From: Planctomycetota bacterium
GTDB lineage: Bacteria > Planctomycetota > PLA2 > JAEUHO01
Direction of reading: 5' to 3'
DNA length: 64,000 nt
Assembly (NCBI GenBank): GCA_046350655.1
Contig: JAXMAB010000005.1
Span: forward strand, 11,696 to 75,695
Below the pieces are notes generated by a model that saw nothing but the letters and a program-made list of their open reading frames with translations, searched no databases and was not told where the DNA came from. Both the position numbers and the translations under genes were made by a program. Below, in pieces: positions 2-49,875 of this stretch (position 1 is the first letter of the stretch; each line of letters begins with the position of its first letter).

Positions 2-107
2 GGGCCCGGAGACGGGTTCTGGACCCGATGAGGAGCCCTTTCGCCGAGCATGCCTCCCCGCAGCCCGGCGCCGCGCGGGCGCAGCAGGAGCGCTTTTCAG
101 ACGGAGC
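2..107. repeat. Copy 1 of a ~106-bp direct repeat (second copy at 181..287); the window starts inside or at the repeat
   Basis: Direct reading: 45 identical bases (gggcccggagacgggttctggacccgatgaggagccctttcgccg), then gcctccccgcagcccggcg and cgcgcgggcgcagcaggagcgc blocks shared with 181..287; about 93% identity, period about 180 bp. Confidence 0.8.
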
Positions 108-180
108 CAAGGCTCCGTCTGAAATCTGCTCCGTCGCGAGCCCGCGTGGGCCGAGGCGAGGGCAGGCGACGGAGGCGAAG

Positions 181-287
181 GGGCCCGGAGACGGGTTCTG
201 GACCCGATGAGGAGCCCTTTCGCCGCGTGTGCCTCCCCGCAGCCCGGCGTCGCGCGGGCGCAGCAGGAGCGCCTTTCAGACAGAACT
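181..287. repeat. Copy 2 of the ~106-bp direct repeat
   Basis: Same as above; the flanking sequence after copy 2 differs from that after copy 1, so this is a 2-copy dispersed-tandem repeat, not a longer array. Confidence 0.8.
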
Positions 288-31310: not shown

Positions 31311-34300
31311 TCAACGCGCGGCGGGCGGGTCGGACGGCGGCGGGCCGCCCGCGGCCGGTCCCGGCGCCGCGTCCGCCCGAGCGCCGTGCGCCACGCGCGC
31401 GACCTCCTCGAGGTCGAGCTCGGCGATCGCCCTCGCGGCCTCGCGTTCGTGGGCGCCCGAGCTGACGAAGCGCGACGTGAGGGCGTCGAAGAGGCTGTAG
31501 AGGGCGGGGACGACGAACAGCGTGAGCAGCGTCGAGACCATCACGCCGCCGACGACGGCGACCGCCATGGGCTGCCGGACCTCGCCGCCCGGCCCCTGGG
31601 CGAGGGCCGCGGGCAGCGCGCCCGCGAGCGTCGCCACCGTCGTCATCAGGATCGGGCGCAGGCGCGTCGGGCAGGCCTCGACGAGCGCGGCGGACGCGTC
31701 GAGGCCCGTCAGGCGGCGCTGGTTCGTGAAGTCCACGAGCAGGATCGAGTTCTTCTTCACGATGCCCATCAGCAGCACGAGGCCGATGAACGAGTAGAGG
31801 TTGAGCGAGAGCCCGGTCCACGCGAGCGCCGCCAGCGCCCCGGTCAGGCTGAACGGGAGCGCGATCAGCACCGTGATCGGGTGCACGAACGAGTTGAACT
31901 GGCTCGCGAGGATCATGTACGCGACGACGAGCCCGAGGAGCAGCGCGAAGTTGAGCTCGGCGAACGACTCCTTGAGCGCCGCCGACTGGCCGGAGAGCGC
32001 GGTCGTGTACCCGGGCGGCAGGAGCTCCTGCGCGATCCGCCGGGCCTCCTCGACCGCCGTCGCCTGCGACGCGCCCGTGGCGACGTTCGCGTTGATCGTG
32101 ATGGCCCGCTCCCGGCCGCGGCGCGTGATCGCGAAGAGCGACTCGGTCGTCCGGACGTCGACGAGCGACGACAACGGCACGAGCGTGCCGTCGGCCGCGC
32201 GGACGCGCAGGAGGGCGAGGTCGCGCTCCCGCGTGCGCTGGTCCGAGAGCAGGCGGACGCGGATGTCGTACCGCCGGCCGCCGTCCTCGCGGGTGCCCGC
32301 GCGGACGCCGCCGACGAGCACGTTGACGGCCTGCGCGATGTCCTCGACGCTGACGCCGGCGTGCGCGGCGCGCGCGCGGTCCGGCACGATCTGCGTCTCG
32401 GGCATGCCGGCGCGGTAGTCGGAGTCGACGTCGGCGAAGAGGCGCTCGTCGGCCCGCATGCGCTCCATCACCTGCTGCGCGGCCGTCGCGAGCGTCCCCC
32501 AGTCGCGCCCGCGGATCGCGAGCTCGACCGGGAACCCGCGGCGGGCCGTGAACCCCTGCTGCGAGAGGTCCTGGAAGGCCGCGCGCCGCGCGGCGCCCTT
32601 CGACAGGAGCGGGCGCACCTCGTTGACGAACTCCTGCGACGAAAGGCGCCGCTGGTCGCGCGGGACGAGCTTGACGTTCAGGTTGCCGACGTTCACGAGG
32701 CCCAGGGAGAGGCCGCCGCCGATCGACATGAACACGTTCTCGACCTCGGGGCGCGCGAGGAGCACGTCCTCGCAGGCCCGCATCTCGGCGTCCGTGAGGT
32801 CGATCGACGCGCTGGCCGGGGTCTGCACGCGCACCTGCACGCGCGAGAGGTCCTGCGACGGCGTCAGCTCGCGGCGGAGCGTGCCGAGGAAGTGGAACGA
32901 CCCCGCGAACACCGCGACGCCGAGGAGCACGATCGGCACGCGCCAGCGGAGCACCGTCGGCAGCGCGCGCCGGTAGGCCGCCGCCATCCCGTCGAACGCC
33001 GCCTCGACGGCGCGCCCGAGGCGCGTCGTCCGCCGGCCCACCGCCAGGAACTGCGAGCACCGCGACGGCGTCAGCGTCAACGCCTCGAGCAGCGAGAGCA
33101 TGACCGCGACGGAGATCGTGACGCCGAACTGGAAGAAGAAGCGGCCCACGATGCCGCGCATGAACGCGACGGGCAGGAAGATCGCGACGATGGCCGCCGA
33201 CGCGGCGAGCGCCGCGAACGAGATCTCGCGCGCGCCCGCGACCGCCGCCCGGACGCGGCCCTCGCCGTGCTCGGCCCGCCGGAAGATGTTCTCGAGCACC
33301 ATGATGGCGTCGTCCACGACGATGCCGACGGCGAGCGAGAGGCCGAGCAGCGTGAACGTGTTCAGCGTGAAGCCCAGGAAGTGCATCACGGCGAACGTCC
33401 CGACGATCGAGGTCGGGATCGACAGCAGCACGTTGATCGTCGAGGAGATGGAGCCCAGGAACAGCCAGCAGACGAGCGCCGTCAGCAGGACCGCCAGGAT
33501 CAGCGTCAGCTCGATCTCGTGGATCGACTCCTCGACCGGCGTCGTCGAGTCGAACACGATCGCGACGTCCACGCCCTCGGGGAGCGTCGGCCTGAGCTCC
33601 TTCAGGCGCTCCTGCACGCCGTGGGCGATCGCGACGGCGTTGGCCCCGCGCTGCTTGCGCACCCCGAGGCCCTGCGCGGGCTGCCCGTTGTTCCGCGCGA
33701 TCACGCGCCGGTCCTCGAGCCCGTCCTCGACGGTGGCGACGTCCGCGAGCGTCGTGACGGTCCCCTCGCGCTCCGCGACCACGAGCGCGCGGAACTCGTC
33801 GACGCCGTGCGCCTCGCCGCGCAGGCGGACGTTGAGCTCGCGGTCGCGGCCCTCGAAGCGGCCGGCGGGCAGCTCGACGTGCTGCCGCTCGAGCGCGCGG
33901 ACGACGTCCGCGGCCGTGACGTTGCGCGCGTCCATGCGGACGGCGTCGAGCCACACGCGCAGGCTCCGCTCGCGGTAGCCGCCGAGGAGGATCTCGCCGA
34001 CGCCGGGCACCGTCTGGAGCCGCTCCCTCACCCGCCGCGCGAGCTCCGCCAGCTCCTGCGGCGGCCGCAGCCCGGTCACCGCGGCCCAGAGGATCGGCTG
34101 GTCCTCGGGGTTGCTCTTCGTGATCACCGGCGGGTCGAGGGCCCGGGGCAGGCGGCGCTGGGCCTGCGCCACGCGCGTCTGCGTCTCCTGCAGCGCCGCG
34201 TCGATGTCGCGGCCGACCTCGAACTCGAGCGTGACGGTCGCGCGCCCCTGCTGGCTCGAGGACGAGATGTCCACGATGCCCTCGACGCTCATGCACGCGT

Positions 34301-34505
34301 CCTCGACCAGCTCGACGACGTCGGTCTCCATCGTCTCGGGCGACGCGCCCTCGAGGGTCAACGAGACCGTGACCTGCGGGAAGTCGACGTCGGGCATCTG
34401 GCTGACGCCCAGCTCCCGGAAGCCGAGGGCCCCGAACACGATCAGGCCCGCCATCAGCATCCACGCGAAGACGGGCTTGCGGACCGCGGCGTCGGACAGC
34501 CTCAT
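31311..34505 (-). CDS. RND-family efflux permease (AcrB/CzcA-like, HAE-type), 1064 aa
   Basis: MRLSDAAVRKPVFAWMLMAGLIVFG start; 12-TM two-repeat architecture; conserved AVGIVVDDAIMVLENIFR motif; the rest of ORF 31311..38192 is junk. Confidence 0.9.
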   Translation of the reverse strand: MRLSDAAVRKPVFAWMLMAGLIVFGALGFRELGVSQMPDVDFPQVTVSLTLEGASPETMETDVVELVEDACMSVEGIVDISSSSQQGRATVTLEFEVGRDIDAALQETQTRVAQAQRRLPRALDPPVITKSNPEDQPILWAAVTGLRPPQELAELARRVRERLQTVPGVGEILLGGYRERSLRVWLDAVRMDARNVTAADVVRALERQHVELPAGRFEGRDRELNVRLRGEAHGVDEFRALVVAEREGTVTTLADVATVEDGLEDRRVIARNNGQPAQGLGVRKQRGANAVAIAHGVQERLKELRPTLPEGVDVAIVFDSTTPVEESIHEIELTLILAVLLTALVCWLFLGSISSTINVLLSIPTSIVGTFAVMHFLGFTLNTFTLLGLSLAVGIVVDDAIMVLENIFRRAEHGEGRVRAAVAGAREISFAALAASAAIVAIFLPVAFMRGIVGRFFFQFGVTISVAVMLSLLEALTLTPSRCSQFLAVGRRTTRLGRAVEAAFDGMAAAYRRALPTVLRWRVPIVLLGVAVFAGSFHFLGTLRRELTPSQDLSRVQVRVQTPASASIDLTDAEMRACEDVLLARPEVENVFMSIGGGLSLGLVNVGNLNVKLVPRDQRRLSSQEFVNEVRPLLSKGAARRAAFQDLSQQGFTARRGFPVELAIRGRDWGTLATAAQQVMERMRADERLFADVDSDYRAGMPETQIVPDRARAAHAGVSVEDIAQAVNVLVGGVRAGTREDGGRRYDIRVRLLSDQRTRERDLALLRVRAADGTLVPLSSLVDVRTTESLFAITRRGRERAITINANVATGASQATAVEEARRIAQELLPPGYTTALSGQSAALKESFAELNFALLLGLVVAYMILASQFNSFVHPITVLIALPFSLTGALAALAWTGLSLNLYSFIGLVLLMGIVKKNSILLVDFTNQRRLTGLDASAALVEACPTRLRPILMTTVATLAGALPAALAQGPGGEVRQPMAVAVVGGVMVSTLLTLFVVPALYSLFDALTSRFVSSGAHEREAARAIAELDLEEVARVAHGARADAAPGPAAGGPPPSDPPAAR

Positions 34506-35944
34506 TTGCCGCCCATCGCCGCATCCATCGCCGCGTCCGGCGGGCCGTTCGCGGGCCCCGCCGCCGCCCCCGCCGCCTTGCCGGCCGTCGGGTCGACCAC
34601 CGCCACCGCGGTCCCGTCCGCGAGGACGTTGCCCCCGCGCACGACGATCGCGTCGCCCTCCTTCAGGCCCGCCACGACCTCGACGAGCCCGTCGCGCGTG
34701 CGCAGGCCGAGCGTGAGGACGCGCGCCTTCGCCTTGCCGTCGTCGACGACGAACGCGAGCCAGCCCTTCTCGCCGGGCTGCAGGGCCGCCTCCGGCACCG
34801 CGATGGCCCGCGCCCGCTTCGTCTCGACCGACACCGTCGCGTAGTAGCCCGGCCGGAGCGTCGGGTCGGGCGACGGCAGCTCCGCCAGGCACTCGACCAT
34901 CCGCGTGACCGCGCTCGCCGTCTCGTCGACGTGCACGAGCGTCGCGGGGTGGACGCGGTCGCCGAGCGACGGCACCACGACGCCCGCGGGCATCCCCGCC
35001 GCCACGCGCGCCGACTCGGGCTCCGTGACGCGGAACCGCACCCGCAGGCGCGTGCGGTCCACGATCTCCGCGATCGCGTCGCCCGCGCGCAGGTACTGGC
35101 CCACGTTGGCGTGCCGGCGGCGCACGACCCCGCGCAGCGGCGAGCGGACCACGGTGTCCTCGGCGGTGCGCACCGCGATCGCGAGCCGCGACTCGGCCTG
35201 CGCGACCTCGGCCTCCGCCTCGACGACGGCCGCCTTCGCGACCCCGAGCGCGCCCTCGGCCTCCTGCTTCGCGCCCTCGGCCTCGCGGTGCGCCGCCTGC
35301 GCGACGCCGACCGCGTCGCGCCGCCGGTCCACCTGCGCGCGCATCTGCGCGACCTCCTCCACCGACACGGCCCCGGGCGACGACTTCCGCAGGTCCTCGC
35401 GCCGCGCGAGCATCTCCTGGCCCTCGCGCAGGTCGGTGCTCGCCGCGCTCGTGAGCGCCGACGCGCGCTCGACGCCCGCCGCCGCGCGCGTGACCGCCGC
35501 CTCCGCCCGCGGGACCGCGGCCGCGGCCGTCGCCACGGCGGCCCGCGCCTGCGCCACCGACTTCTCGGCCTCCGCCTGGGCGAGCAGCCGGCGCGAGCGG
35601 TCGACGACGGCGAGCTCGGTCGTCGTCTCGACCAGCGAGCCCTCGTCGAAGCCGAGCGACTCGACGACGCCGTCCACCCGCGCGGGGACCGTCACCACCT
35701 GGTACGCCTCGAGCGAGCCCGTCCCCTCGACGACGTACACGAGGTCGCGCGGGGCGACCGTCGCGACGACCACCGGCGCGGTGCGCGTGGGCCGGGGCTT
35801 CGCCTTGGCCTCCTCGCCGCCGCCGCAGGCCGCGAGCGCCGCCGCGAGCACGAGCGCGGCCGCGCCGCGCACGCCGCGGAGCCGCGCGACCGCCTGCGGC
35901 GACCCGGGACGGACCCTCCCTGCGGCGATCGTGAGCGTGCCCAT
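34502..35944 (-). CDS. RND efflux membrane-fusion (periplasmic adaptor) lipoprotein, 480 aa; stop overlaps the RND start
   Basis: Lipobox LAAC|GGG; long coiled-coil (AEAEKSVAQARAAVATAAAAV...) flanked by beta-barrel/lipoyl-like segments; ATGA coupling with the RND gene. Confidence 0.85.
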   Translation of the reverse strand: MGTLTIAAGRVRPGSPQAVARLRGVRGAAALVLAAALAACGGGEEAKAKPRPTRTAPVVVATVAPRDLVYVVEGTGSLEAYQVVTVPARVDGVVESLGFDEGSLVETTTELAVVDRSRRLLAQAEAEKSVAQARAAVATAAAAVPRAEAAVTRAAAGVERASALTSAASTDLREGQEMLARREDLRKSSPGAVSVEEVAQMRAQVDRRRDAVGVAQAAHREAEGAKQEAEGALGVAKAAVVEAEAEVAQAESRLAIAVRTAEDTVVRSPLRGVVRRRHANVGQYLRAGDAIAEIVDRTRLRVRFRVTEPESARVAAGMPAGVVVPSLGDRVHPATLVHVDETASAVTRMVECLAELPSPDPTLRPGYYATVSVETKRARAIAVPEAALQPGEKGWLAFVVDDGKAKARVLTLGLRTRDGLVEVVAGLKEGDAIVVRGGNVLADGTAVAVVDPTAGKAAGAAAGPANGPPDAAMDAAMGGK

Positions 35945-36206
35945 GGGAGGACGTTGTCCTCCCCGGCAGGGTTCGTCCAGCGTCTTCCCCGGCGCGCGGC
36001 CGGGCACGCGCGCCATCGCGGGACCACCGCCCCGCCGTGCCCGCGGTCGGACCGCGGGGCCCGCGAGGCCCGCCCGCCGTCGTCGGCGGCACGCGGGCCT
36101 CGCGGTCCCTCGCCCCGGGACGCGTCCGGACGGGCGGTGCCGCGGCACGCGACGGCTCGGGCGCGGCGAGCGCGGCCCGCCGCCCGGCCACCGCTATGAT
36201 CGCGCC

Positions 36207-37145
36207 GTGCCGACGCTGCGCTCCCTCTCCGACGGTCTCGCCACCGAGGTCCTCGACGGCGAGACGCTGCTCGCGGCGCTCGTCCGCGCCCGCGTGCCCG
36301 TGGCCCACGCGTGCGGCGGGCTCGCGAGGTGCTCGACCTGCCGCGTGCGGGTCGTGGGCGGCCTCGACGCCTGCACCCCCCGCACCGACGACGAGCGGGC
36401 CATCGCCACGCGGCTGGGCCTCGAGGACGCCGTGCGGCTCGCCTGCCAGACGCGGGCGACCGGCGACGTCGAGGTGCGGCGGCTGGTCCTCGACCCCGAG
36501 GACTACGAGCTGACGAAGCAGTTCACCGCGCGGCCCGCGGGCGACGGCCCGCCGCGCGCGTCCATGGGCCGCGAGGCGCCCGTCGCGGTGCTGTTCGCCG
36601 ACGTGGCGGGGTTCACGGGCCTGTCGGAGCGGCTGCCCGCGTACGACGTCGTCCACGTGCTGCACCGGTGGTTCCACCTCGCGACGACCGTCGTGGACGG
36701 GCTCGGCGGGCGCGTCGACAACTACATGGGCGACGGCCTGCTGGCGGTCTTCGCGGGCGAGGGGCCCGCGCCGGCGCGCGCCGCGGTGCGCGCGGCGCTC
36801 GGGCTCCTCGAGGCGTCGGACCGGATGGCGGCGTACCTCGCGACCGCCTACGGGCAGCCGTTCGCCGTGCGCATCGGGGTCCACGCGGGCGTCGTCGTGG
36901 TGGGCTCGCCGACGCCGTGGCACCGCGAGCGCGACACCGTGATCGGCGACGTCGTCAACTTCGCCAGCCGCATCGAGGCGGCGAACAAGGAGCTCGGGAG
37001 CCGGCTGCTCGTGTCGGACGTCGTCTGGGCCGACGTCGCCGACGAGGCCGTGGCGGGCCGTCGCGTGGAGGTCGAGATCCGCGGCAAGCAGGGCGTCCAC
37101 GCGCTCGTAGAGGTCCTTTCCCTCACCGCTCCGCCGCCGGCGTGA
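36207..37145 (+). CDS. Fusion of a plant-type [2Fe-2S] ferredoxin domain and a class III adenylate/guanylate cyclase domain (312 aa), GTG start
   Basis: CGGLARCSTC ... LACQT (C-x5-C-x2-C...C) then cyclase motifs VLFADVAGFT, YMGDGLLAVF, RIGVHAGVVVVG, GDVVNFASRIE; the start codon is uncertain. Confidence 0.8.
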   Translation: MPTLRSLSDGLATEVLDGETLLAALVRARVPVAHACGGLARCSTCRVRVVGGLDACTPRTDDERAIATRLGLEDAVRLACQTRATGDVEVRRLVLDPEDYELTKQFTARPAGDGPPRASMGREAPVAVLFADVAGFTGLSERLPAYDVVHVLHRWFHLATTVVDGLGGRVDNYMGDGLLAVFAGEGPAPARAAVRAALGLLEASDRMAAYLATAYGQPFAVRIGVHAGVVVVGSPTPWHRERDTVIGDVVNFASRIEAANKELGSRLLVSDVVWADVADEAVAGRRVEVEIRGKQGVHALVEVLSLTAPPPA

Positions 37146-37199
37146 CGCGCGAGTTCGACCGCACGCCGCGGGACGCGGGGCCCGCGCGCCCCGCGTAGG

Positions 37200-38346
37200 G
37201 TGCGTCGCATGCGCCCGCCGCCCCTCCCCCGACCGCCCGCCGCGCCGCGGCCCCCCGCCGCGGCGGCCCTCGTCGAGGCCGATCCCCGCTGGGCCCGCGT
37301 GCTCGCGCGCGACCCGGCCGCCGACGGCGCGTTCGTGTACGCGGTCCGCACGACGGGCGTGTGCTGCCGGCCGTCGTGCCCGTCGCGGCGGCCGCGGCCG
37401 GAGCACGTCGAGTTCCACGCCGACGTCGCCGCGGCGCGGGCGGCGGGGTTCCGCGCGTGCCGGCGCTGCGCCCCCGAGGGGCCCGCGCCGGCCGACGTGC
37501 GCGCCGCCCGCGTCGCCGCGCTGTGCCGGCGCCTCGAACGCGACGGCCCCACGCCGACGCTCGCCGACCTCGGCCGCCTCGTGGGGCTCTCGCCGTTCCA
37601 CGTCGCGCGCGTGTTCCGCGCGGCGACGGGCGTGACGGTCCGCGCGTACGCCGCGGCGCACCGCGCGCGCCGCGCGCGGGCCACGCTGCGGACCCGCCCG
37701 ACCGTGGCCGCGGCGCACGCGGCCGCGGGCTACGGCTCGGCCTCGCGGTTCTACGCGACCGCCGCCGCGCGTCTCGGCATGACGCCGCGCGCCTACCGCG
37801 CCGGCGGCGCCGGCCTCGAGCTGCGCTACGCGACCGCGCCCTGCGACCTCGGCACCGTGCTCGTCGCGGCCACGCCGCGCGGGATCGCGGCGATCCTCCT
37901 CGGCGACGCGGACGGCCCGCTCGTGCGCGACCTCGCGCGGCGCTTCCCGCGCGCGACGCGCGTGCGCGACGCGGCGGGCCTCGCGTCCCGCGTGCGCGAC
38001 GTCGTCCGCGCGGTGGCGGAGCCGCGCCTCGCGGCGCGTCTCCCGCTCGACGTGCGCGGGACGGCGTTCCAGCAGCGCGTGTGGGCGGCGCTCGCGGCGG
38101 TGCCCGCCGGCGCGACGACGACGTACGCGGCGGTCGCGCGCGCTCGGCGCGCCGCGCGCGGTGCGCGCCGTGGCCGGCGCGTGCGCGGCCAATCCCGTCG
38201 CCGTCGCGATCCCGTGCCATCGCGTGCGGCGCTCGGACGGCGCGCTCGCGGGCTATCGCTGGGGCGTCGCGCGCAAACGCGCCCTGCTCGCGCGCGAGGC
38301 CGTCGCGACGACCGGGGGCCCCCGTCGCGCGCCCCCCGGTGGGTGA
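37200..38346 (+). pseudogene. ada: Ada-type tri-domain gene (Ada Zn-binding N-domain + AraC HTH + O6-methylguanine-DNA methyltransferase) with a frameshift near 38135..38145 inside a gcgcgcgc run
   Basis: Frame A: [21 protein letters not shown]...CRRC (Ada metal site), AraC HTH, MGMT start [18 protein letters not shown]...TTYAAVA. The continuation ...[43 protein letters not shown] (PCHR active site) is only in the other frame (ORF 38161..38346). One missing base in tacgcggcggtcgcgcgcgc|tcgg would restore the frame. Confidence 0.75.
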
Positions 38347-39879: not shown

Positions 39880-41571
39880 GTGCTCGTGACCGGCGCCACC
39901 GGGTACGTGGGCGGCCGCCTCGTGCCGCGCCTGCTCGAGGCCGGGCATCGCGTGCGCGCGCTCGCGCGCGACCCCCGCAAGCTCGCCGGCCGCGCCTGGA
40001 GCGCCGACCCGGGCCTCGAGATCGCGGCGGGCGACGTGCTCGACGAAGCCTCCCTCGCGGCGGCGTGCCGCGGCTGCCGCGCGGCCTACTGGCTCGTCCA
40101 CTCGATGGACGCGCGCCACGCGGACTTCGCCGAGGCCGACCGTCGGGCCGCCGCGGCGATGGCGCGGGCCGCCGCCGAGGCGGGCCTCGAGCGGATCGTG
40201 TACCTCGGCGGCCTCGGCGAGGACGGCCCCGACCTGTCGCCGCACCTGCGCTCGCGCGCCGAGGTGGCGCGCGTCCTCGCGTCGGGGCCCGTGCCCGTGA
40301 CGACGCTGCGCGCGGGGATGATCCTCGGGTCGGGCAGCGCGTCGTTCGAGATCCTGCGCTACCTCGTGGACCGCCTGCCCGCCATGGTGACGCCGCGCTG
40401 GGTCGGCACGCCGTGCCAGCCCGTCGCGATCCGCGACGTGCTCGGCTGGCTGGTCGGCGTGCTCGACGCGCCGGCCGCGGCGGGCCGCACGTTCGACGTG
40501 GGCGGCCCCGAGGTGCTCACGTACCGGCGGCTCATGGAGGTCTACGCCGAGGAGGCCGGGCTCCCGCGCCGGTGGATCGTCCCCGTGCCGATCCTCTCGC
40601 CGCGGCTCTCGTCGTACTGGATCCACCTGGTCACGCCGGTCCCCGCCGCGCTCGCGCGCCCGCTCGCGGAGGGGCTCCGCAACCCCGTCGTCGCCCACGA
40701 CGACGCGCTGCGCACGCTGCTGCCGCGCGACCTCCTGACCCCGCGCGAGGCGATCCGCCTCGCGCTCGAGCGGTTCCGCCACGACGCGACGGAGACGCAC
40801 TGGACCGACGCGGGGCGCCTCCCCGCGGCGGAGTGGAGCGACCCCGACGACCCGGCGTGGGCCGGCGGCACCGTGCGCGAGGACGTGCGCCGCGTCGTCG
40901 TCGCGGCGCCCATCGAGCGCGCGTGGGCGCCGGTCGCGCGGATCGGCGGGCGCACGGGCTGGTACCACGCGGACGGCCTCTGGGCCCTGCGCGGCCGCCT
41001 CGACCGGCTCGTCGGCGGCGTGGGGCTGCGCCGCGGGCGGCGCCATCCCGTGGACCTGCGCGTCGGCGACGCGCTCGACTTCTGGCGCGTCGTCGAGGTG
41101 GACCCGCCCCGCCGGCTGCGGCTCGTGGCCGAGATGCGCCTGCCGGGCCGCGCGACGCTCTCGATCGACCTGCGCGCGCTCGACGCCGGGCGCACCGAGA
41201 TCGTCTCGACGGCGCGGTTCGCGCCGCGCGGCCTCCTGGGCCTCGCGTACTGGACGGCCGTGGCCCCGATGCACCACGGCGTCTTCCACGGGCTCTTGAA
41301 GGGGCTCGCGAAGGCCGCGCGGGCGCGCGTGCTCGAGGGCCCCGAGGTCGTGCGCGTCCCGCGGCGCGCGAGGCCTCGCGCGGCGGCGGGCGCCCGCGCG
41401 CTGACGGCCGCGGCCGCGACGCCGGGATGCGACGCCGGGATGCGACGGAAGCGTTGCATCGCGCGCGGTCCACGCGACGCGGGCCCGGGACCCCGCGACG
41501 CGCGCACCCTCCGCGGGGTTCAATGGCGCGGGGTCGCGCGACGCGCGCGCAGGTCGAGGGGAGCGCCCCCG
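39880..41571 (+). CDS. NAD(P)-binding NmrA/SDR-like domain fused to DUF2867; 3' end unresolved (no in-frame stop before the next gene's start; the ORF runs on to 43197)
   Basis: GTG start; Rossmann GATGYVGGRLV; C-terminal domain (WxxxD...GGRTGWYH...LRG..D...VGD..DFWRV) DUF2867-like; followed by a low-complexity linker containing a 13-bp tandem duplication. Confidence 0.6.
41418..41443. repeat. Perfect 13-bp tandem duplication (gacgccgggatgc x2) in the linker between the DUF2867 and DUF1549 coding regions
   Basis: Seen directly; 13 is not a multiple of 3, so the duplication (or its absence) changes the downstream frame. Confidence 0.8.
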
Positions 41572-43197
41572 ATGCGTGCGTCGCGCGAGGTCCCGTCGGC
41601 CGCGGCCGGCCGGCGCCGTGCCCGCGCGGTCCCGGCGCTCGCGGTCGCGGCGCTCACGCTGCTGCCGCTCGCGTCGCCGTCGGTCGCGCCGGCGCGCGCC
41701 GCGCCCGAGCCGCCCGCGGCCGCGGCGCCGTGGGCCGCCGCGTCCGCGCGCGTGGACGCGCTCGTCCGCGCGCGGCTCGACGAGCTGGGGATCGCGCCGG
41801 CCCCGCGGTGCAGCGACGAGACGTTCGTGCGCCGCGCCTACCTCGACGTGACGGGGACGCTCCCGCGCCTCGACGAGGTGCGCGCGTTCCTGCGGAACCA
41901 GAAGCCGGACCGCCGCGCCGCGCTCGTCGACGCGCTGCTCGAGCGCGAGGAGTACGCCGACTACCTCGCGATGCGCTGGTGCACGCTCCTGCGGGTCAAG
42001 TCGGAGTTCCCGATCAACCTGTGGCCGAACGCCGTCCAGGCCTACCACCGGTGGATCCGGACCCAGGTCCGCGACAACGTCCCGTGGGACCGGTTCGCGC
42101 GCGCGCTCCTCACGTCGAGCGGCAGCAACGTCCGCGTGCCCGCGGTCAACTTCTACCGCGCGGTGCAGAAGAAGGACCCGCCGACCCTCGCGCGCGCGGT
42201 GGCGCTCACCTTCCTCGGCTGCCGCGCGGAGGCCTGGGAGAAGGCGCGGCTCGACGGCCTCGCGGCGTGCCTCGCGCGCGTGGGGTGGAAGACGACGGCG
42301 GAGTGGAAGGAGGAGATCGTCTTCTTCGACGTCACGAAGCCCGGTCTGCCCTCGACGACGCTCCCGGACGGCACCGTCGTGAAGCTGCCGCCGCGGCAGG
42401 ACCCGCGCGAGGTGCTCGCCGACTGGGTGGTGTCGCCGTCGAACCCGTGGTTCGCGCGGGCGATCGCGAACCGCGTCTGGTCGTGGCTGCTCGGCACCGG
42501 GATCGTGCACGAGCCCGACGACCTCCGGCCCGACAACCCGCCGTCGAACCCGGCGCTGCTCGAGCTCCTCGAGCGCGAGACGGTCGCCGGCGGCTTCGAC
42601 CTGAAGCACCTCTACCGCGTGATCCTCAACTCGCAGACGTACCAGCGCGCGTCGGTGCCGACCACCGACGACCCGCGCGCGGAGGCGGCGTTCGCGCACT
42701 ACCCGGTGCGCCGCCTCGAGGCCGAGGTGCTCATCGACGCCATCAACCAGGTGACCGGCACCGCCGAGGAGTACACGAGCAAGATCCCGGAGCCGTTCAC
42801 CTTCATGCCCGAGGGGCAGCGCTCGATCGCGCTGGCCGACGCCAGCGTGTCGAGCCCGTTCCTCGAGCTCTTCGGCCGCTCCGCGCGGGTGACGGGCCTC
42901 GAGTCGGAGCAGCGCGCCGCGCTGCCGACGGTGGCGCAGCGCCTCCACCTGCTCAACTCGACGCACCTGCGGCGCAAGCTCGAGCAGGGCCCGAACATGG
43001 CGGCGATGCTGAAGCCGACGGCGTGGCCCCGCGACACGTACGACACGCTGTACCTCACGATCCTGTCGCGGTACCCCACCGCGGCCGAGCTCGAGGCCGT
43101 CCGCGCGTACCAGGACGACGTCGGCGGCCTCGCGCGGGCCGGGACGGACCTCGCGTGGGCGCTGATCAACGGCGCCGAGTTCCAGTGCCGCCACTGA
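41572..43197 (+). CDS. DUF1549/DUF1553 (PSD1-type) secreted protein, planctomycete-like, 541 aa
   Basis: GAGGGGAG RBS; signal peptide; FVRRAYLDVTGTLP, EEYADYLAMRWCTLLRV, NLWPNAVQAYHRWI (DUF1549 block), then DUF1553-like C-half (NRVWSWLLGTGIVHEPDDL, NPALLELL). Confidence 0.8.
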   Translation: MRASREVPSAAAGRRRARAVPALAVAALTLLPLASPSVAPARAAPEPPAAAAPWAAASARVDALVRARLDELGIAPAPRCSDETFVRRAYLDVTGTLPRLDEVRAFLRNQKPDRRAALVDALLEREEYADYLAMRWCTLLRVKSEFPINLWPNAVQAYHRWIRTQVRDNVPWDRFARALLTSSGSNVRVPAVNFYRAVQKKDPPTLARAVALTFLGCRAEAWEKARLDGLAACLARVGWKTTAEWKEEIVFFDVTKPGLPSTTLPDGTVVKLPPRQDPREVLADWVVSPSNPWFARAIANRVWSWLLGTGIVHEPDDLRPDNPPSNPALLELLERETVAGGFDLKHLYRVILNSQTYQRASVPTTDDPRAEAAFAHYPVRRLEAEVLIDAINQVTGTAEEYTSKIPEPFTFMPEGQRSIALADASVSSPFLELFGRSARVTGLESEQRAALPTVAQRLHLLNSTHLRRKLEQGPNMAAMLKPTAWPRDTYDTLYLTILSRYPTAAELEAVRAYQDDVGGLARAGTDLAWALINGAEFQCRH

Positions 43198-43214
43198 CGC
43201 CGGAGGACCCGACG

Positions 43215-44543
43215 ATGCGCACCGCCCCCACCCGTCGCGCCGTGCTGCGGACCGGGCTCGCCGGCGCCGCCGCGTGCCTGCTCGGCGACCACGCCGCCGT
43301 CCGCGCGTGGGCCGGCGGGCCTCGCGTGACGGCGGGGAAGGCCCGGTCCGTCGTCCAGATCTGGATGTGGGGCGGCCCCAGCCACCTCGACACGTTCGAC
43401 CCGAAGCCCGAGGCGGGCAGCGCCTACGCGGGCCCGCTGACGCGGCCCGTCGAGACCAACGTGCCGGGGATGCGGATCTCGGAGCTCCTGCCCCTGCTCG
43501 CGAAGCAGGGCGACAAGTACGCGCTGATCCGCAGCATGACCCACGGCAACTTCGGCCACGAGACGGCCGCCTACATGGTGCAGACGGGCCGCAAGCCCGG
43601 CGAGCGGATCGTCTACCCGACCGTCGGCGCGGTCGTGGCGCACTTCCGCGGCGAGACCGCCGACGACGCGGCGCGCCTGCCCCCCTACGTGGTGCTCACG
43701 GAGCCGCAGGGGCGGTTCGACGAGGCGGGGTTCCTCGGCACGCGCTACCGGCCGTTCGCGACGGGCGGCGACCCGTCGCAGCCGCGTTTCCTCGTCGAGG
43801 GCATCGTCGCGGCGGGCATCACCGAGGCGCAGCAGCGCGAGCGCCGGGCGCTGCTCGACCGGCTCGACGTGCTGCGCCGCGCCGTCCCGTCGAACCCCGC
43901 GGTGCGGGCGCTCGCGCGGTCCGAGGAGCAGGCGTACGAGCTGATCCTCGGCGCCGGCGCGCGCACGTTCGACCTCTCGACCGAGCCCGACGCGCTGCGC
44001 GACCGGTACGGGCGCACGAAGTTCGGCCAGTCGTGCCTCGTCGCGCGCCGCCTGGTCGAGCAGGGCGTGCCGTACGTGACGATCAACTACGCGGGCTGGG
44101 ACACCCACAAGGACAACTTCCCGGAGATGCGCCGCAAGCTCCCCGAGCTCGACCGCGGCCTCGCGACGCTCCTCGAGGACCTCGCCGACCGCGGCCTGCT
44201 CGCGAGCACCATCGTCTGGTGCGGCGGCGAGTTCGGCCGCACGCCGAAGGTCGACACCGAGGCGCCGTGGAACGGCGGCCGCGGCCACTGGGGGAAGGTG
44301 TTCTCGACGCTCGTCGCGGGCGGCGGCTTCAAGGGCGGCCGCGTCGTCGGCGCGTCGGACGCGAAGGGCGAGGAGGTCAGGACGCGGCCGGTGTACCCGC
44401 GCGACCTCATCGCGAGCATGTACAGGCTGCTCGGCATCGAGCCCGACGCGCGGCTCCCCCACCCCGAGGGCGCCGAGACCTTCGCGCTGCCCACCGCGGC
44501 CGACGACGTCCCGTCGGGCGGGATCCTCAAGGAGCTGCTGTGA
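43215..44543 (+). CDS. DUF1501 protein (sulfatase-like fold) with Tat signal, 442 aa
   Basis: GGAGGA RBS; RRAVLRTGLAGAAA twin-arginine signal; QIWMWGGPSHLDTFDPKP, MTHGNFGHETAAYM, CGGEFGRTPK, GRGHWG motifs of the DUF1501 family. Confidence 0.85.
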   Translation: MRTAPTRRAVLRTGLAGAAACLLGDHAAVRAWAGGPRVTAGKARSVVQIWMWGGPSHLDTFDPKPEAGSAYAGPLTRPVETNVPGMRISELLPLLAKQGDKYALIRSMTHGNFGHETAAYMVQTGRKPGERIVYPTVGAVVAHFRGETADDAARLPPYVVLTEPQGRFDEAGFLGTRYRPFATGGDPSQPRFLVEGIVAAGITEAQQRERRALLDRLDVLRRAVPSNPAVRALARSEEQAYELILGAGARTFDLSTEPDALRDRYGRTKFGQSCLVARRLVEQGVPYVTINYAGWDTHKDNFPEMRRKLPELDRGLATLLEDLADRGLLASTIVWCGGEFGRTPKVDTEAPWNGGRGHWGKVFSTLVAGGGFKGGRVVGASDAKGEEVRTRPVYPRDLIASMYRLLGIEPDARLPHPEGAETFALPTAADDVPSGGILKELL

Positions 44544-46789
44544 GCCGCGCGCGCGCCGGCGGGACGCGCCGCGCCGCCGCGGCGGTCGCGCTGCTGGCGC
44601 TCGCGTGCGCCGCGGCCCCGCGCGCGGCCGCCGACGGCCCGCACGCCGGGTACGTGTTCCCCGCGGGCGGGCGCCAGGGGACGACGTTCGAGGTGACGGT
44701 CGCGGGGCAGTACCTCAAGGACACGGTGGCCGCGCACGTGTCCGGCACGGGCGTCACCGCGAAGGTGCTCGCCGAGGAGCGGCCGCTGACCCCGAAGGAG
44801 GAGGACGAGCTGCGCAAGGCCCTGGAGGCGTTCCAGGCGAAGCGGCGCGCGCCCGGCGGCGTCACCGCCGACGAGGTGAAGGCCGCCGAGGCGACGCGCC
44901 GGCGGCTGCAGCGGTTCGGCCGCCCCCCCGCCAACCCGTCCATCGGCGAGTTCGTCACGCTGGAGGTCGCGGTCGACGCGGCCGCGGCGCCGGGCCGGCG
45001 CGAGCTGCGGCTCGCGACCCAGGCGGGCCTCACGAACCCCGTCGTGTTCGAGGTCGGGACGCTGCCGGAGGTGAGCGAGGCCGCGTGGGAGAGCGTCGGC
45101 GGCCCCGCGGGCCTCGCGCCCGACCGCGAGGCGAAGGGCCGCGAGACCCGCGTCACGCTCCCCGTGACGCTCAACGGCCAGATCCCGCCCGGCGGCATGG
45201 ACCGCTACCGCTTCCGCGCCGAGCAGGGGATGCCCCTCGTCGTGGTCGTGCGCGCGCGCGAGCTGATCCCGTACATCGCCGACGCGGTGCCCGGCTGGTT
45301 CCAGGCGACGGTCGCGTTGTACGACGCCAAGGGCCGCGAGCTCGCCTTCAGCGACGACTACCGCTTCCACCCCGACCCCGTCCTCTTCTTCCGCATCCCC
45401 GCGACGGGCGAGTACGTGCTCGAGGTGAAGGACGCGCTCTTCCGGGGCCGCGAGGACTTCGTCTACCGCATCTCCGCGGGCGAGCTGCCGTTCGTGACCG
45501 CGGTCTTCCCCCTCGGCGGCCGGGTCGGCACCGAGACGTCCCTCCTCGCCTCGGGGTGGAACCTCCCGTTCCGCACCGTGGCCCTCGACCTCCGGACGGT
45601 GGAGCCGGGCGTGCACGTCGTGCCCGACCCGCGCGTCGCCAACCCCGTGCCCTACGCCGCCGACACGCTCCCCGAGGTGGCCGAGGAGGAGCCCGACGAC
45701 GAGGCCGGCCAGCTCGTCCCGCGGCCGGTCGTCGTCAACGGCCGCATCGACGCGCCCGGCGACGTCGACGTCTTCCGGTTCAACGCCTCGGCGGGCGAGC
45801 GCATCGTCGCGGAGGTCCTCGCGCGACGGCTCGACTCGCCCCTCGACGCGCGCCTCGTGGTGACGGACGCCTACGGCAAGCAGGTCGCGCTCAACGACGA
45901 CCACGAGGACAAGGGCGCGGGCCTCGACACGCACCACGCCGACGCGTACGTCGCGTTCACCGTCCGGACGAGCGGCGTGTGCCGCGTGACGCTCGAGGAC
46001 GCGCAGCACGCCGGCGGCCCCGCGCACGCGTACCGCCTCCGGATCGGCCCCCCGCGCCACGACTTCGAGCTCCGCGTCACGCCCTCGACGCTCAACCTGC
46101 GCGCGGGCGCGAGCGTCCCCCTCACGGTCCACGCCCTGCGCCGCGACGGCTTCGACGGCGAGATCGAGGTGGTGCTCCGCGACGCGCCGAAGGGCTTCAC
46201 GCTCACGGGCGACCCCATCGCGAAGGGGGCCGACCGCGGCCGCTACACGCTGGACGCGCCGACCTCCGTCGCCGACGGGATGTTCACGCTGCGCGTCGAG
46301 GGGCGCGCGCGGCTCCACGGGCGCGTCGCGGTCCGCGAGGCGGTCCCCGCCGACGACATGATGCAGGCCTTCATCTACCGCCACCTCGTGCCCGCGCAGC
46401 AGCTCGTGGGCGCGGTCGTCGGGCGGCTGCGGGCCCCGGGCGCGACGCGGTACGTCTCCGAGGTCCCGGTGCGCATCCCGGCCGGCGGCACGGCGAAGGT
46501 CGAGGTGAGCCTCGCGCGGCTCCCCCCGAACGTCGGCAACCTCGAGTTCGTCCTCGACGCGCCGCCCGACGGCATCACGCTGAAGGGCGTCCGCGCGCTC
46601 CCGGACACGACCGAGCTGGTCCTCGCCGCCGACCCCGCGAAGGTGAAGCCCGGCGTCCGCGGCAGCCTCATCGTGAACCTCTCGGGCGAGCGCACCGCGA
46701 CCGCCGGCGCCGCGGCGCCCGCCGCCGCGCGCCGCCGCGTCGCCCTCGGCGTGCTGCCCGCGCTGCCGTTCGAGGTCGTGCGCCCCTGA
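44540..46789 (+). CDS. Large secreted protein (749 aa) with repeated beta-sandwich (PPC/Ig-like) segments, GTG start overlapping the DUF1501 stop (GTGA)
   Basis: Signal peptide ALLALACAAAPRAAA; repeated G..D.YRF...G..L modules (DRYRFRAEQG, DVFRFNASAGE, YRLRIGPP); coding-like composition across the full length. Confidence 0.65.
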   Translation: MSRARAGGTRRAAAAVALLALACAAAPRAAADGPHAGYVFPAGGRQGTTFEVTVAGQYLKDTVAAHVSGTGVTAKVLAEERPLTPKEEDELRKALEAFQAKRRAPGGVTADEVKAAEATRRRLQRFGRPPANPSIGEFVTLEVAVDAAAAPGRRELRLATQAGLTNPVVFEVGTLPEVSEAAWESVGGPAGLAPDREAKGRETRVTLPVTLNGQIPPGGMDRYRFRAEQGMPLVVVVRARELIPYIADAVPGWFQATVALYDAKGRELAFSDDYRFHPDPVLFFRIPATGEYVLEVKDALFRGREDFVYRISAGELPFVTAVFPLGGRVGTETSLLASGWNLPFRTVALDLRTVEPGVHVVPDPRVANPVPYAADTLPEVAEEEPDDEAGQLVPRPVVVNGRIDAPGDVDVFRFNASAGERIVAEVLARRLDSPLDARLVVTDAYGKQVALNDDHEDKGAGLDTHHADAYVAFTVRTSGVCRVTLEDAQHAGGPAHAYRLRIGPPRHDFELRVTPSTLNLRAGASVPLTVHALRRDGFDGEIEVVLRDAPKGFTLTGDPIAKGADRGRYTLDAPTSVADGMFTLRVEGRARLHGRVAVREAVPADDMMQAFIYRHLVPAQQLVGAVVGRLRAPGATRYVSEVPVRIPAGGTAKVEVSLARLPPNVGNLEFVLDAPPDGITLKGVRALPDTTELVLAADPAKVKPGVRGSLIVNLSGERTATAGAAAPAAARRRVALGVLPALPFEVVRP

Positions 46790-46869: not shown

Positions 46870-48093
46870 TCAGCCGCGCCGCACGCGCACCCGGCCCACG
46901 ATGGCCGCCAGGGCCTCGCGCACGGTCTCCGTCCGCGGCGCGCGGACGAGGACGTGGCCCTCGCCCTCGTAGCCCTCGGCGACGGCCTGGCCCACGCGCG
47001 GCGGGTTCACCTCGACGACGACGTCGCCGAGCTCCGCCACGACCTCGTCGAGCCCGGTCACCGCCGCGACGCGCGTCCCCTGCCCCTGGCTGCGCAGGAA
47101 CGCCGCGCCCGCGGCGGCCGTGCGGCGCGGCGGGTCGAACGTCTCGTGGACCACCAGGCGCACCCACGCCGGGATCATGTCGACGCCGTGCGTGAGCGAC
47201 ATCATCGGCATGATGTGGACGCCCGGCGGCCGCGCGCCGACCTCGGAGACGACCGCCGAGCCGTCGGCGCGGCGGAACCACTCCATGTGCGTGAGGCCCG
47301 TGCCCATGCCGAGGGCCGCGAGCGCCGCGAGGCCCGTCGGCACGAACGCGGCGAAGTCCGGCGCGTCCTCCTCGCGGGGCAGCAGCACGCAGTACTGGAT
47401 CCACGGGTTCTCGAGCACCGTCAGCGGGCCCGGCAGGTACCGCGTCCCGGACCACCAGACCGGCCGGCCGCGCACCGAGACCGTCTCGAAGGTGAGCTCG
47501 TCGCCGGTCACGAACTCCTCGGCCTGGACGGGCCGCGCGGGCGCCGGCGCGAGCGCCGCGAGCGCCTCCTCGAGGCCGGCCGCGTCGCGCACGCGATAGG
47601 TCGCCTTCGCGCCGAGGCCGTCCGGCGGCTTCACGACGACGGGGAACCCCACCTCGCGCACGAACGCGCGGCCGTCGGCGGCGCTCGCGAGCAGCCGGGA
47701 GCGCGCGACCGGGACGCCCGCGGCGCGCAGCACCTCCTTCATCCGCGCCTTGTCGCGGAACCCGCGCACCGTCTCCGCCGACATCCCCGGGACGCCCGCG
47801 AGGTCGCGGGCGCGCGCGACGGGCGCCTGCAGCTGCTCGAGGACGCCGAACAGCCGGTCCACGGGCCCCACCTCGGCGGCCAGCGATCGGCACGCGCCCG
47901 CCAGCGCGTCGGCGTCGAGGGCGTCGGCGACGCGGCGGTGCCCGGCGAGGCCCGCGCGGACGTCCGGCGGCAGCCGCTCGACGTCGTCCTGCGTGATCAC
48001 GCAGGGCCGCGCGCCCTCGAGCGCGACCAGCGCGCGGACGTAGCGGACCGTGTTCTCCTGGAAGAACGGCGCGACGAGCACGGCGGTGAGCAT
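46870..48093 (-). CDS. ATP-grasp domain protein (407 aa)
   Basis: FPVVVKPPDGLGAKATYRV ... EEFVTGDELTFETV ... typical ATP-grasp fold segments. Confidence 0.7.
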   Translation of the reverse strand: MLTAVLVAPFFQENTVRYVRALVALEGARPCVITQDDVERLPPDVRAGLAGHRRVADALDADALAGACRSLAAEVGPVDRLFGVLEQLQAPVARARDLAGVPGMSAETVRGFRDKARMKEVLRAAGVPVARSRLLASAADGRAFVREVGFPVVVKPPDGLGAKATYRVRDAAGLEEALAALAPAPARPVQAEEFVTGDELTFETVSVRGRPVWWSGTRYLPGPLTVLENPWIQYCVLLPREEDAPDFAAFVPTGLAALAALGMGTGLTHMEWFRRADGSAVVSEVGARPPGVHIMPMMSLTHGVDMIPAWVRLVVHETFDPPRRTAAAGAAFLRSQGQGTRVAAVTGLDEVVAELGDVVVEVNPPRVGQAVAEGYEGEGHVLVRAPRTETVREALAAIVGRVRVRRG

Positions 48094-48369: not shown

Positions 48370-49875
48370 TCAGCGCGCGTCGGGGACGACGAGGCCCGGG
48401 AGCATCTCGCCCGTGGCGGCGAGGTTGAGGTGGAGCTCGAAGCACGTGCGCAGGTCGTGGCGGAGGTGGCCGGGCCGGCAGCGCTCGAGGTAGCGCAGCA
48501 GGTAGTCGCGGTAGGCCGGGTGCGCGCACCGCGTGACGATGGTCGCCGCGCGCTCCGCGGGCGCGAGGCCGCGGAGGTCGGCGAGCCCGTGCTCGGTCAC
48601 GATCACGCGGGTCGAGTGCTCGTTGTGGTCGACGTGGCTGCACATGGGCACCACGGTCGAGATGCGGCCGCCCTTCGCGGTGGACGGGGCGACGAAGATC
48701 GGGACCGCGGCGTTGCGCGCGAAGTCGCCGCTGCCGCCGATGCCGTTCACGACGTGGGTGCCGCCGACGTGCGTCGAGTTCACGTGCCCGTAGAGGTCCA
48801 CCTCGAGGGCGGCGTTGAGCGAGATGAGGCCGAGCCGGCGGATCACCTCGGGGTGGTTCGACACCTCCTGCGGGCGCATCACGATCCGCGGCGCGTACCG
48901 CTCGAGCCCGTCGGCGACGCGGCGCTGCGCGGCGTCGGTCAGCGTGAGCGCCGTGGTGCTCGCGCCGACGATCTTCCCCTCGTCGAGGAGGTCGAGGACG
49001 GCGTCCTGCAGCACCTCGGAGTACATGAAGAACGGCGGCACGTCGGCGTGGCCGCCGAGCCCCCGCAGGACCGCGTTCGCGACGTTCCCGACGCCGGCCT
49101 GCACCGGCAGGAACTCCTTCGGGATGCGGCCCGCGCGCATCTCGCCGAGGAGGAACCGCACGACGTGGTCCGCGATGCGCTCGCTCACCGCGTCCGGCGC
49201 GTCGAACGCGGCGACGCCGTCGGGCTCGTCGGTCTCGACCACGCCGACGACGCGGCGCGGGTCCACCGCGGCATAGGGCCAGCCGATGCGCGTCAGCGGC
49301 GCCTCGATCGGGATCGGGTGGCGGTGGTGCGGCGGCGGCAGGACGACGACGTCGTGCAGCTCGCGCAGCCGCGGCGCGTGCCGGCGGTTGATCTCCAGCA
49401 CCACGCGCTGCGCGCACGCGAGCCAGGTCGGCGACGCGCCGATGCTGGTCGTGAGGTACACGCGGCCGTCCGGCGTCACCTCCGTCGCCTCGACGACGGC
49501 GACGTCGAGGGGCCCGAACTCGCCCGCCGCGACCATCTGCGGCACCGACGAGAGGTGCATGTCCACGAACGCGACCCGCCCGGCGTTCACCTGCGCCCGG
49601 AGCGCGGGGCTGCTCTGGTACGGCGCGCGCCACGCCACCGCCTCGGCCTCGGCCAGCGTCTCGTCGAGCGCGCGGCCCGTGGAGGCGCCCGCGAGCACGC
49701 GGATGCGGTACGGCTCGCCGCGGGCGTGCGCCGCGCGGGCGCGCGCGGCGAGCGCGCGCGGGACCGCCTTCGCCGAACCGGCGGGCGTGAACCCGCTGAA
49801 GCCGACCAGGGCGCCGTCGGGGATCAGGGCCGCCGCCTCGTCGGCGGTCAACGTCGGGAACGGGGCGTGGGCCAT
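48370..49875 (-). CDS. Acetyl-CoA hydrolase/transferase family protein (succinyl-CoA:acetate CoA-transferase-like), 501 aa
   Basis: Two-domain CoA-transferase layout with the GxGGxxD-containing block NGIGGSGDF and the catalytic-Glu region EVDLYGHVNS of the AcetylCoA_hydro family. Confidence 0.85.
   Translation of the reverse strand: MAHAPFPTLTADEAAALIPDGALVGFSGFTPAGSAKAVPRALAARARAAHARGEPYRIRVLAGASTGRALDETLAEAEAVAWRAPYQSSPALRAQVNAGRVAFVDMHLSSVPQMVAAGEFGPLDVAVVEATEVTPDGRVYLTTSIGASPTWLACAQRVVLEINRRHAPRLRELHDVVVLPPPHHRHPIPIEAPLTRIGWPYAAVDPRRVVGVVETDEPDGVAAFDAPDAVSERIADHVVRFLLGEMRAGRIPKEFLPVQAGVGNVANAVLRGLGGHADVPPFFMYSEVLQDAVLDLLDEGKIVGASTTALTLTDAAQRRVADGLERYAPRIVMRPQEVSNHPEVIRRLGLISLNAALEVDLYGHVNSTHVGGTHVVNGIGGSGDFARNAAVPIFVAPSTAKGGRISTVVPMCSHVDHNEHSTRVIVTEHGLADLRGLAPAERAATIVTRCAHPAYRDYLLRYLERCRPGHLRHDLRTCFELHLNLAATGEMLPGLVVPDAR

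Follow-up and report, generated by a model that had tools for sequence, protein, structure and literature searches.

In Planctomycetota and Verrucomicrobiota, DUF1501 and PSCyt2/PSD1 proteins, with dozens of copies in each genome, constitute some of the largest expansions of function-unknown families. We analyzed a 64,000-nucleotide stretch of DNA from a Planctomycetota bacterium, referred to here as the window, in which a PSCyt2 (DUF1549)/PSD1 (DUF1553) gene (gene B) and a DUF1501 gene (gene C) are followed by a third gene (gene D) encoding a large exported protein. The question raised by this locus is whether D belongs with the pair and, if so, what the three proteins do together. An earlier reading of the sequence (the original prediction) regarded D as a non-standard partner and the triad as a single periplasmic machine, perhaps for a sulfated or complex polymer. 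Comparison across genomes showed that D regularly occupies the third place in this B/C subfamily, and that the operon, of which the window has an ordinary example, is very common.

Conservation of the B-C-D gene order

We scanned one genome per species and obtained at least 589 loci encoding D, of which the best 80 were analyzed. According to the record titles, these 80 loci were from Verrucomicrobiota (37), Planctomycetota (18), Acidobacteriota (12), metagenome-assembled genomes (MAGs) titled 'Bifidobacteriaceae' (5), Lentisphaerota (2), and Gemmatimonadota (2), and four were unclassified. The 'Bifidobacteriaceae' or 'Bifidobacterium' labels of the triad-bearing MAG records (L011, L014, L018, L041, and L054) are probably wrong.

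Gene order was counted in the 63 of these 80 loci that have at least 3.3 kb upstream of D. B, C, and D were found in the same order and on the same strand in 55 loci (87%); three more had C and D alone, and five had D alone. The B-C-D order spans Planctomycetota, Verrucomicrobiota, Lentisphaerota, Acidobacteriota, and Gemmatimonadota, and identity to the window proteins across the loci was 48-63% for B, 57-69% for C, and 44-56% for D. The linkage of the third gene to DUF1501 is thus kept in other genomes, and the idea that it is a non-standard partner is refuted for this subfamily. A PPC-like partner of DUF1501 has also been in print since 2012 (PMC3542564).

The same arrangement was observed from other starting points. 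Three arbitrarily chosen D homologues on long contigs, including those of a Lentisphaerae MAG and a Thermoguttaceae MAG, were all located behind genes for a PSCyt2/PSD1 protein of 526-541 amino acids and a DUF1501 protein of 442-460 amino acids. Starting from a D relative with 39% identity to the window D, we obtained three further contexts with the order B (528-543 amino acids), C (448-461 amino acids), and D (730-777 amino acids). The triad therefore persists for D relatives at 39-45% identity. The median intergenic gaps were 62 and 47 nucleotides, the latter being the estimated C-D gap, which was zero or negative in 13 of the 55 triads. The 4-nucleotide GTGA overlap between C and D recurs in loci L085 and L089.

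We then compared the divergence of the three proteins over 57 triads. The Mantel correlation coefficients were 0.68 for B-C, 0.70 for C-D, and 0.76 for B-D, and none of 500 permutations gave a value as high. Distances between D proteins thus track those of B at least as well as B and C track each other.

Several loci have a different arrangement. Some Verrucomicrobiota have two D paralogues, arranged in tandem or near each other (B-C-D-D'), as in L050 (7001-9376 and 10804-13176) and L060 (4466-6829 and 6943-9249), and the second D of L080 is convergent with a full triad. Two loci of Verrucomicrobiia (L061, 4322-9310; L078, 1289-6296) contain a D-like gene without B or C; they have in common a different conserved context, with genes for a GH16/GH43-like protein and then a YgjP-like metallopeptidase directly upstream. 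The gene upstream of D in L066 encodes a beta-propeller/cytochrome c peroxidase-type protein.

Gene structure of the locus

B, C, and D were all confirmed as real genes on the plus strand (Table 1). The GC content of the window is approximately 77% and third codon positions are nearly all G or C, so the reading phase is easy to trace. The fraction of G or C at the third codon position (GC3) was 0.99-1.00 in the expected phase over the three genes, with changes of phase at 43200 and 44500. D, for which a coding-potential check had been proposed, passed it with an in-phase GC3 of 1.00, and more than 6472 homologues of its product were found. The coordinates, gene lengths, and GTGA overlap first assigned to the three genes all matched our direct reading of the sequence.

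Table 1 Features of the B-C-D locus. Positions are those of the window and residues those of protein D; AF2, AlphaFold2 model.
Feature	Position	Residues of D	Strand	Basis
Gene B, short-form PSCyt2 (DUF1549) + PSD1 (DUF1553) protein, 541 aa	41572..43197		+	Pfam, GC3
Gene C, DUF1501 protein, 442 aa, twin-arginine leader	43215..44543		+	Pfam, Foldseek
C/D junction: AAGGAG 44529-44534, GTG 44540, TGA 44541-44543	44529..44543		+	read from sequence
Gene D, exported multi-beta-sandwich protein, 749 aa, GTG start	44540..46789		+	AF2, Foldseek, GC3
Domain 1 of D, TIG/Ig-like with helical hairpin		35-180		AF2
Domain 2 of D (PPC1), PPC-like module 1; MDRYRF, invariant DAVPGW loop, RGREDFVYR	45143..45481	202-314	+	AF2 strands, invariant columns, homology to module 2
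Domain 3 of D, Ig-like		318-381		AF2
Domain 4 of D (PPC2), PPC-like module 2; GDVDVFRF, invariant NDDHEDKGxGLxTHHAD loop	45728..46048	397-503	+	AF2, weak Pfam PPC, 5sv5 TM 0.78, invariant columns
Domain 5 of D, Ig-like		508-600		AF2
C-terminal beta-sandwich region of D		602-747		AF2

The sequence GAGGGGAG is located upstream of the ATG start codon of B (41572), and GGAGGA upstream of that of C (43215). The GTG start codon of D sits within ...CTGCTGTGAGCC... and overlaps the TGA stop codon of C by four nucleotides; the context of this GTGA overlap is ...AAGGAGCTGCTGTGA..., and the AAGGAG at the junction is Shine-Dalgarno-like. The two genes downstream of D, encoding an ATP-grasp enzyme (46870-48093, minus strand) and a succinate/acetate CoA-transferase (48370-49875, minus strand), are both convergent, indicating that D closes the unit. 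Scans of 39-48 kb for sigma-70 promoters, intrinsic terminators, and Rfam families gave no match, a result that is uninformative at 77% GC in a planctomycete.

The gene upstream of B (gene A, 39880 onward), encoding a protein with SDR NAD-binding and DUF2867 domains, has no in-frame stop codon ahead of B. In the NCBI record, a single 1105-residue 'DUF2867 domain-containing protein' (MFO0932016.1) hides B, and in the close relative L085, A (529 amino acids) and B (539 amino acids) are separate genes. Alignment with this close relative showed that a 16-nucleotide segment with the stop codon of A is missing in the window (junction approximately 41380-41571). B still has a ribosome-binding site, a start codon, and a signal peptide of its own. 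The loss is either a true deletion that gives read-through or a consensus error of the MAG.

Domain architecture of protein D

The original description of D as a large secreted beta-sandwich protein with repeated modules was supported by the AF2 model, the Foldseek search, and internal homology. D has a Sec-type signal peptide. The AF2 model has a predicted local distance difference test score (pLDDT) of 82 and a predicted template modeling score (pTM) of 0.77; it is all beta except for the helix of the signal peptide and a helical hairpin at residues 85-126, which is an insertion in the first domain. The best match of D in the Protein Data Bank (PDB) by Foldseek was the calcium-bound tandem collagen-binding domain of ColG (5iku, s3a-s3b; E 8.6e-13), followed by the beta-sandwich N-terminal domains of the channel DeCLIC. 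Superposition with the PPC domain 5sv5 gave a template modeling (TM) score of 0.78 and a root-mean-square deviation of 2.6 over 117 columns. In the model, the modules of D adopt the PPC beta-sandwich fold. The D.YRF..G motif noted earlier indeed occurs in two copies (residues 221 and 410), and the two PPC modules are internally duplicated, with 29% identity (E 3e-12).

No Pfam family scored above its threshold with the window D, and the weak match to PPC (PF04151; residues 408-456) had a score of 16.5 bits (cut-off 25.9; E 0.016). Many D orthologues exceed this cut-off, for example P0137 with 44.9 bits. PDB sequence and profile searches with D returned nothing meaningful. No catalytic domain was detected in D by Pfam, NCBIfam, or fold search, and no peptidase family was matched; thus, databases that call some homologues 'peptidase' do so without foundation.

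D matches the hypothetical protein MFO0932018.1 of a Planctomycetota MAG with 100% identity, and its full-length relatives are approximately 50% identical. Against a library of 50%-identity representatives, D matched 9527 clusters at E <= 1e-3 and 1697 at E <= 1e-30. The mean column identity of the D orthologues was 58%. The low-confidence internal loops of the model (residues 250-252, 458-466, and 608-614) coincide with the invariant sequences DAVPGW, DKGxGLxTHHAD, and DDMMQAFxYRHLV. These unmodelled loops may be binding loops that become ordered only on a partner or ligand. A search for fusions among the long D homologues detected PPC alone, apart from one fusion with alpha/beta-hydrolase and PKD domains. 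In this homologue, P0145 (1239 amino acids, metagenomic), the two domains are a C-terminal extension, which may be a true fusion to an enzyme of the esterase type or a gene-call artefact.

Properties of proteins C and B

C matched the Pfam DUF1501 family (PF07394) with 320.7 bits (cut-off 27; E 2e-95) over 374 of 390 profile positions. Its leader, TRRAVLRTG, has two arginines with a hydrophobic stretch behind them; conservation of R7 and R8 is at least 90%, whereas the Pfam TAT_signal family was matched only at E 0.3. The conserved arginine pair fits predicted twin-arginine translocation (Tat) of a folded, possibly metal-loaded enzyme. With a pLDDT of 65, the AF2 model of C is poor, above all in the loops presumed to form the active site. 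Foldseek with this model retrieved S1 sulfatases, the lipoteichoic-acid synthase LtaS, YejM, and other proteins of the alkaline-phosphatase superfamily (E 1e-6 to 1e-4). The matches to S1 sulfatases, with carrageenan and aryl sulfatases at the top, had E values of 9e-7 to 5e-4 and a probability of approximately 1.0, with TM scores of 0.3-0.4 that are low because the model is poor. The sulfatase-like fold formerly proposed for DUF1501 is thus borne out, and C is predicted by this model to have an alkaline-phosphatase/sulfatase-superfamily fold.

The catalytic signature of type I sulfatases is absent. The formylglycine motif, (C/S)-x-P-x-R-x4-T-G, was found in none of the 57 C orthologues, indicating that C is not a type I sulfatase and that the annotation 'sulfatase' should be corrected, as should 'peptidase' for D. 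The C orthologues have a mean column identity of 74% and share the invariant motifs WxWGGxSHxDTFDPKP, SMTHG, HET, GWDTH, GEFGRTP, and GGRGHW. By manual alignment, the invariant H115-E116-T117...T-G following a beta-strand appears to occupy the region of the sulfatase nucleophile motif. This H-E-T segment suggests a Thr/His-type center, like those of phospho-transfer members of the superfamily. PDB sequence and profile searches with C gave no meaningful match, the thermonuclease matches (E approximately 0.06-0.3) being due to chance, and an hhalign comparison of the C profile with the Sulfatase-family gene present in the window itself gave no significant match (E 0.31).

This Sulfatase-family gene (28444-29943, minus strand) has T-G-P-S-I...T-G instead of CxPxR and probably encodes no true sulfatase. 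It directly adjoins a PSCyt1 (planctomycete cytochrome c) gene (30078-31139, minus strand), and the two genes exemplify the PSCyt-sulfatase adjacency known from the literature.

B matched PSCyt2 (PF07583) with 105.9 bits (cut-off 29.8; E 3.7e-30) and PSD1 (PF07587) with 151.7 bits (cut-off 28.5; E 3.1e-44), and has an N-terminal Sec-type signal peptide. Neither PSCyt1 nor Big_2 was detected in B by Pfam, and the haem-binding motif CxxCH was found neither in B nor in its 57 orthologues; a cytochrome role of B is therefore without support. The same motif is absent from C and D of the 57 orthologous triads. PDB sequence and profile searches with B found no relative. The mean column identity of the B orthologues was 60%. 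The window B ends with ...AEFQCRH, and all 59 B orthologues end at the identical position with E-F-x-x-R/Q-H and the stop codon, indicating that the free C-terminus is functionally constrained.

Genomic neighborhood of the triads

We examined the immediate neighbors of the 55 triads. The 106 genes belong to 101 Pfam families, and the only one that recurs is Ribonuc_L-PSP (13). This recurrent neighbor encodes a protein of approximately 400 amino acids with FkbO/Hyg5-like (chorismatase-type) and L-PSP/RidA domains, and was present at 13-14 of approximately 55 loci, mostly in Verrucomicrobiota. It is usually divergent from B or located just after D (e.g., L089, 11290-12351; L012, 2683-4038, minus strand), and has no counterpart in the window. 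Open reading frames of 130-190 codons downstream of D were considered as L-PSP matches and rejected as unrelated sequences.

No sulfatase or carbohydrate-active enzyme (CAZyme) family recurred among the 106 neighbors. Glycoside hydrolases (GH) and related enzymes were found beside some triads (GH43, GH27, GH28, BNR sialidase, GH38, and GH127) without recurring, and CAZymes, sulfatases, and SusC/D-type transporters did not consistently accompany the 55 triads in the manner of a polysaccharide utilization locus. A WD40/PSCyt1 gene was adjacent to the triad neither in the window nor at the 55 loci. Because its neighbors are heterogeneous, the triad looks autonomous and not part of a glycan-utilization locus.

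In Thermoguttaceae-type loci, a small protein of approximately 98-127 amino acids with two CxxC pairs is encoded directly after D (L004, 9654-9947; L001, 10340-10627; L007, L008, and L013), with 77-93% mutual identity. It has no counterpart in the window.

Proposed function of the triad

We judge it probable, though far from certain, that B, C, and D constitute one functional exported module in which D is a non-catalytic subunit. The idea of a single machine holds in so far as the genes form a co-oriented, tightly spaced, and co-inherited exported unit; that the proteins also assemble into a ternary complex, the roles of B and D, and the chemistry of C are what we infer from these data. The three proteins, encoded by one conserved operon, would act in the periplasm or beyond. 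C would be the catalytic subunit, a metallo-hydrolase or transferase of the alkaline-phosphatase superfamily, and its twin-arginine leader implies that it may be exported folded. With the invariant H-E-T in place of the formylglycine motif, phospho- or related ester transfer would be likelier than sulfate ester hydrolysis; our confidence in any particular chemistry of C is much lower than that in a shared function of the three proteins.

B would be an obligate helical partner of C; every DUF1501 protein of this kind appears to have one. The strictly conserved free end of B (...EFxxRH-COOH) probably inserts into a metal site or a partner. D is predicted to consist of Ig/TIG domains and two PPC domains of the collagenase type in a rigid chain, and its most likely role is to bind the substrate, either a polymer or a surface, or to serve as a scaffold for B and C. 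In long-form PSCyt proteins, beta-sandwich binding modules are present in cis; D may provide modules of this kind in trans. The conserved order, small gaps, and start/stop overlap in several lineages would fit co-translational assembly.

Several observations weigh against a single module. The catalytic assignment of C comes entirely from fold and motif conservation, with a model of pLDDT 65, and we found no functional study on DUF1501, DUF1549, DUF1553, or PSCyt families in the literature. No Rosetta-stone fusion of D to B or C was found among the long D homologues. The occurrence of D without B and C at five of the 63 loci, together with tandem D duplicates, indicates that D can function or persist apart from B and C. 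Shared vertical descent would by itself also give correlated distances, so the co-divergence shows inheritance as a unit and not contact.

If the triad were a machine for binding and processing a sulfated or complex polysaccharide, as originally suggested, C would be a sulfatase-like enzyme and D a carbohydrate-binding protein. The fold of C, with carrageenan and aryl sulfatases as top Foldseek matches, the glycoside hydrolases adjoining some triads, and the reported linkage of PSCyt genes with sulfatases and carbohydrate-binding modules (PMC5615132) are in line with this. However, (C/S)xPxR was found in 0 of 57 C orthologues, the flanking genes are not consistently those of sulfatases or glycan utilization, with no recurrent sulfatase or CAZyme among the 106 neighbors, and in the window they are the SDR/DUF2867 gene and the ATP-grasp gene. 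The cross-phylum identity of C (60-69%) points to one fixed substrate, unlike diversifying glycan loci. We consider this explanation unlikely. D could also be a client: B and C would modify it, mature it, or help to export it, and once secreted it would work by itself as an adhesin-like or binding protein. B-C pairs without a D-type gene are abundant (PMC3542564), with 41 PSD1/PSCyt2 copies in Rhodopirellula baltica (PMC2754498), so B and C need no D client. The co-divergence of B and D is as strong as that of B and C. We know of no precedent for an arrangement of the client type, and regard it as quite unlikely, even though D is always located 3' of B and C, occurs alone in some genomes and in tandem copies, and has conserved, unmodelled His/Asp/Thr-rich loops that could be modification sites.

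D might, finally, have no functional relation to B and C and be co-transcribed as a passenger of the operon. This is very unlikely, since order and adjacency are kept in 87% of the loci, over five phyla and down to 39% identity, the three genes co-diverge, and the start-stop overlap in several lineages suggests translational coupling; the five of 63 loci with D without B and C, and the lack of D fusions among long D homologues, are the observations that a passenger would explain. The electron-transport or cytochrome system tied to the intracellular membranes of the Planctomycetes-Verrucomicrobia-Chlamydiae (PVC) superphylum, proposed by Kamneva et al., draws on the domain name PSCyt2 and on the correlation of DUF1501 clusters with compartmentalized PVC species (PMC3542564). 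For the present triads it is extremely improbable: no CxxCH is present in B, C, or D of 57 triads, PSCyt1 is missing from B, and Acidobacteriota and Gemmatimonadota commonly have the triad as well. We rejected electron transport for this subfamily because the haem motif is absent.

A stronger version of the single exported module is that the triad is a single ancient complex of near-universal order, in which D is an obligate specificity or scaffold subunit and C a new type of exported enzyme of the alkaline-phosphatase superfamily, with a His/Thr-based center in place of formylglycine. Its substrate would be fixed and widely available, e.g., part of the envelope or a common ester or organophosphorus compound, and not variable glycans. 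This version is speculative and we hold it to be doubtful. If true, the triad would be the most conserved and least paralogous part of the DUF1501/PSCyt/PSD expansion and its best experimental entry point.

Comparison with known systems

Kamneva et al. (2012) reported that DUF1501 clusters with PSCyt/PSD1 proteins and that a signal-peptide protein with a weak PPC match is encoded beside DUF1501 (PMC3542564). Long PSCyt proteins carry fused Laminin_G, F5/8-C, and Big_2 modules (PMC3542564, PMC5615132). The four-gene cluster of Kamneva et al. encodes DUF1501, PPC-like, PSCyt1/Big_2/PSCyt2/PSD1, and PSCyt1/WD40 proteins, and the window has the first two of these only. Likened by description, both have a Tat-type DUF1501 protein by a PSCyt2/PSD1 protein and an exported weak-PPC protein with otherwise unrecognized conserved regions. 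The window differs in that B is a short form with neither the PSCyt1 haem domain nor Big_2, no PSCyt1/WD40 gene is present, and the unit has three genes; the window-type triad also reaches beyond PVC to Acidobacteriota and Gemmatimonadota. The operon type was thus sketched in 2012, and the window instance is an extension of a known uncharacterized kind, not a new kind. In the literature searched on these families, we found no description of the three-gene variant with a short B, of its occurrence outside PVC, or of how D is built.

The DUF1800-DUF1501 pairs of Proteobacteria (PMC5122149) likewise combine a Tat-exported DUF1501 protein with a function-unknown operon partner, but the partner here is PSCyt2/PSD1, set apart by family name, and no PPC-type third gene is described there. 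C resembles type I sulfatases, LtaS, YejM/PbgA, and phosphoethanolamine-type transferases in its predicted fold (Foldseek) and periplasmic export; it differs in having no (C/S)xPxR, no detectable sequence similarity, no membrane anchor, and invariant motifs of its own. Two modules of D share the fold of the collagen-binding and PPC domains of clostridial ColG/ColH and the GDxDxF motif is kept in D, whereas a peptidase domain is lacking, Ig/TIG domains alternate with the modules, and the PPC score of the window protein is below the threshold.

The triad represents a strictly ordered three-gene sub-type, with 45-69% identity over five phyla and a non-catalytic PPC/Ig third protein. It is a well-defined biochemical target: its three proteins are exported and soluble, they offer invariant motifs for mutation, and the C-terminal His of B is conserved.

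Other observations in the window

Long spurious open reading frames are frequent in this GC-rich window. The mechanically called frame of 2293 amino acids at 31314-38192 (minus strand) is not one gene; its C-terminal 1000 residues alone correspond to an AcrB-type resistance-nodulation-division pump, and an HlyD-type membrane-fusion gene is located within the same region in a different frame (34505-36148).

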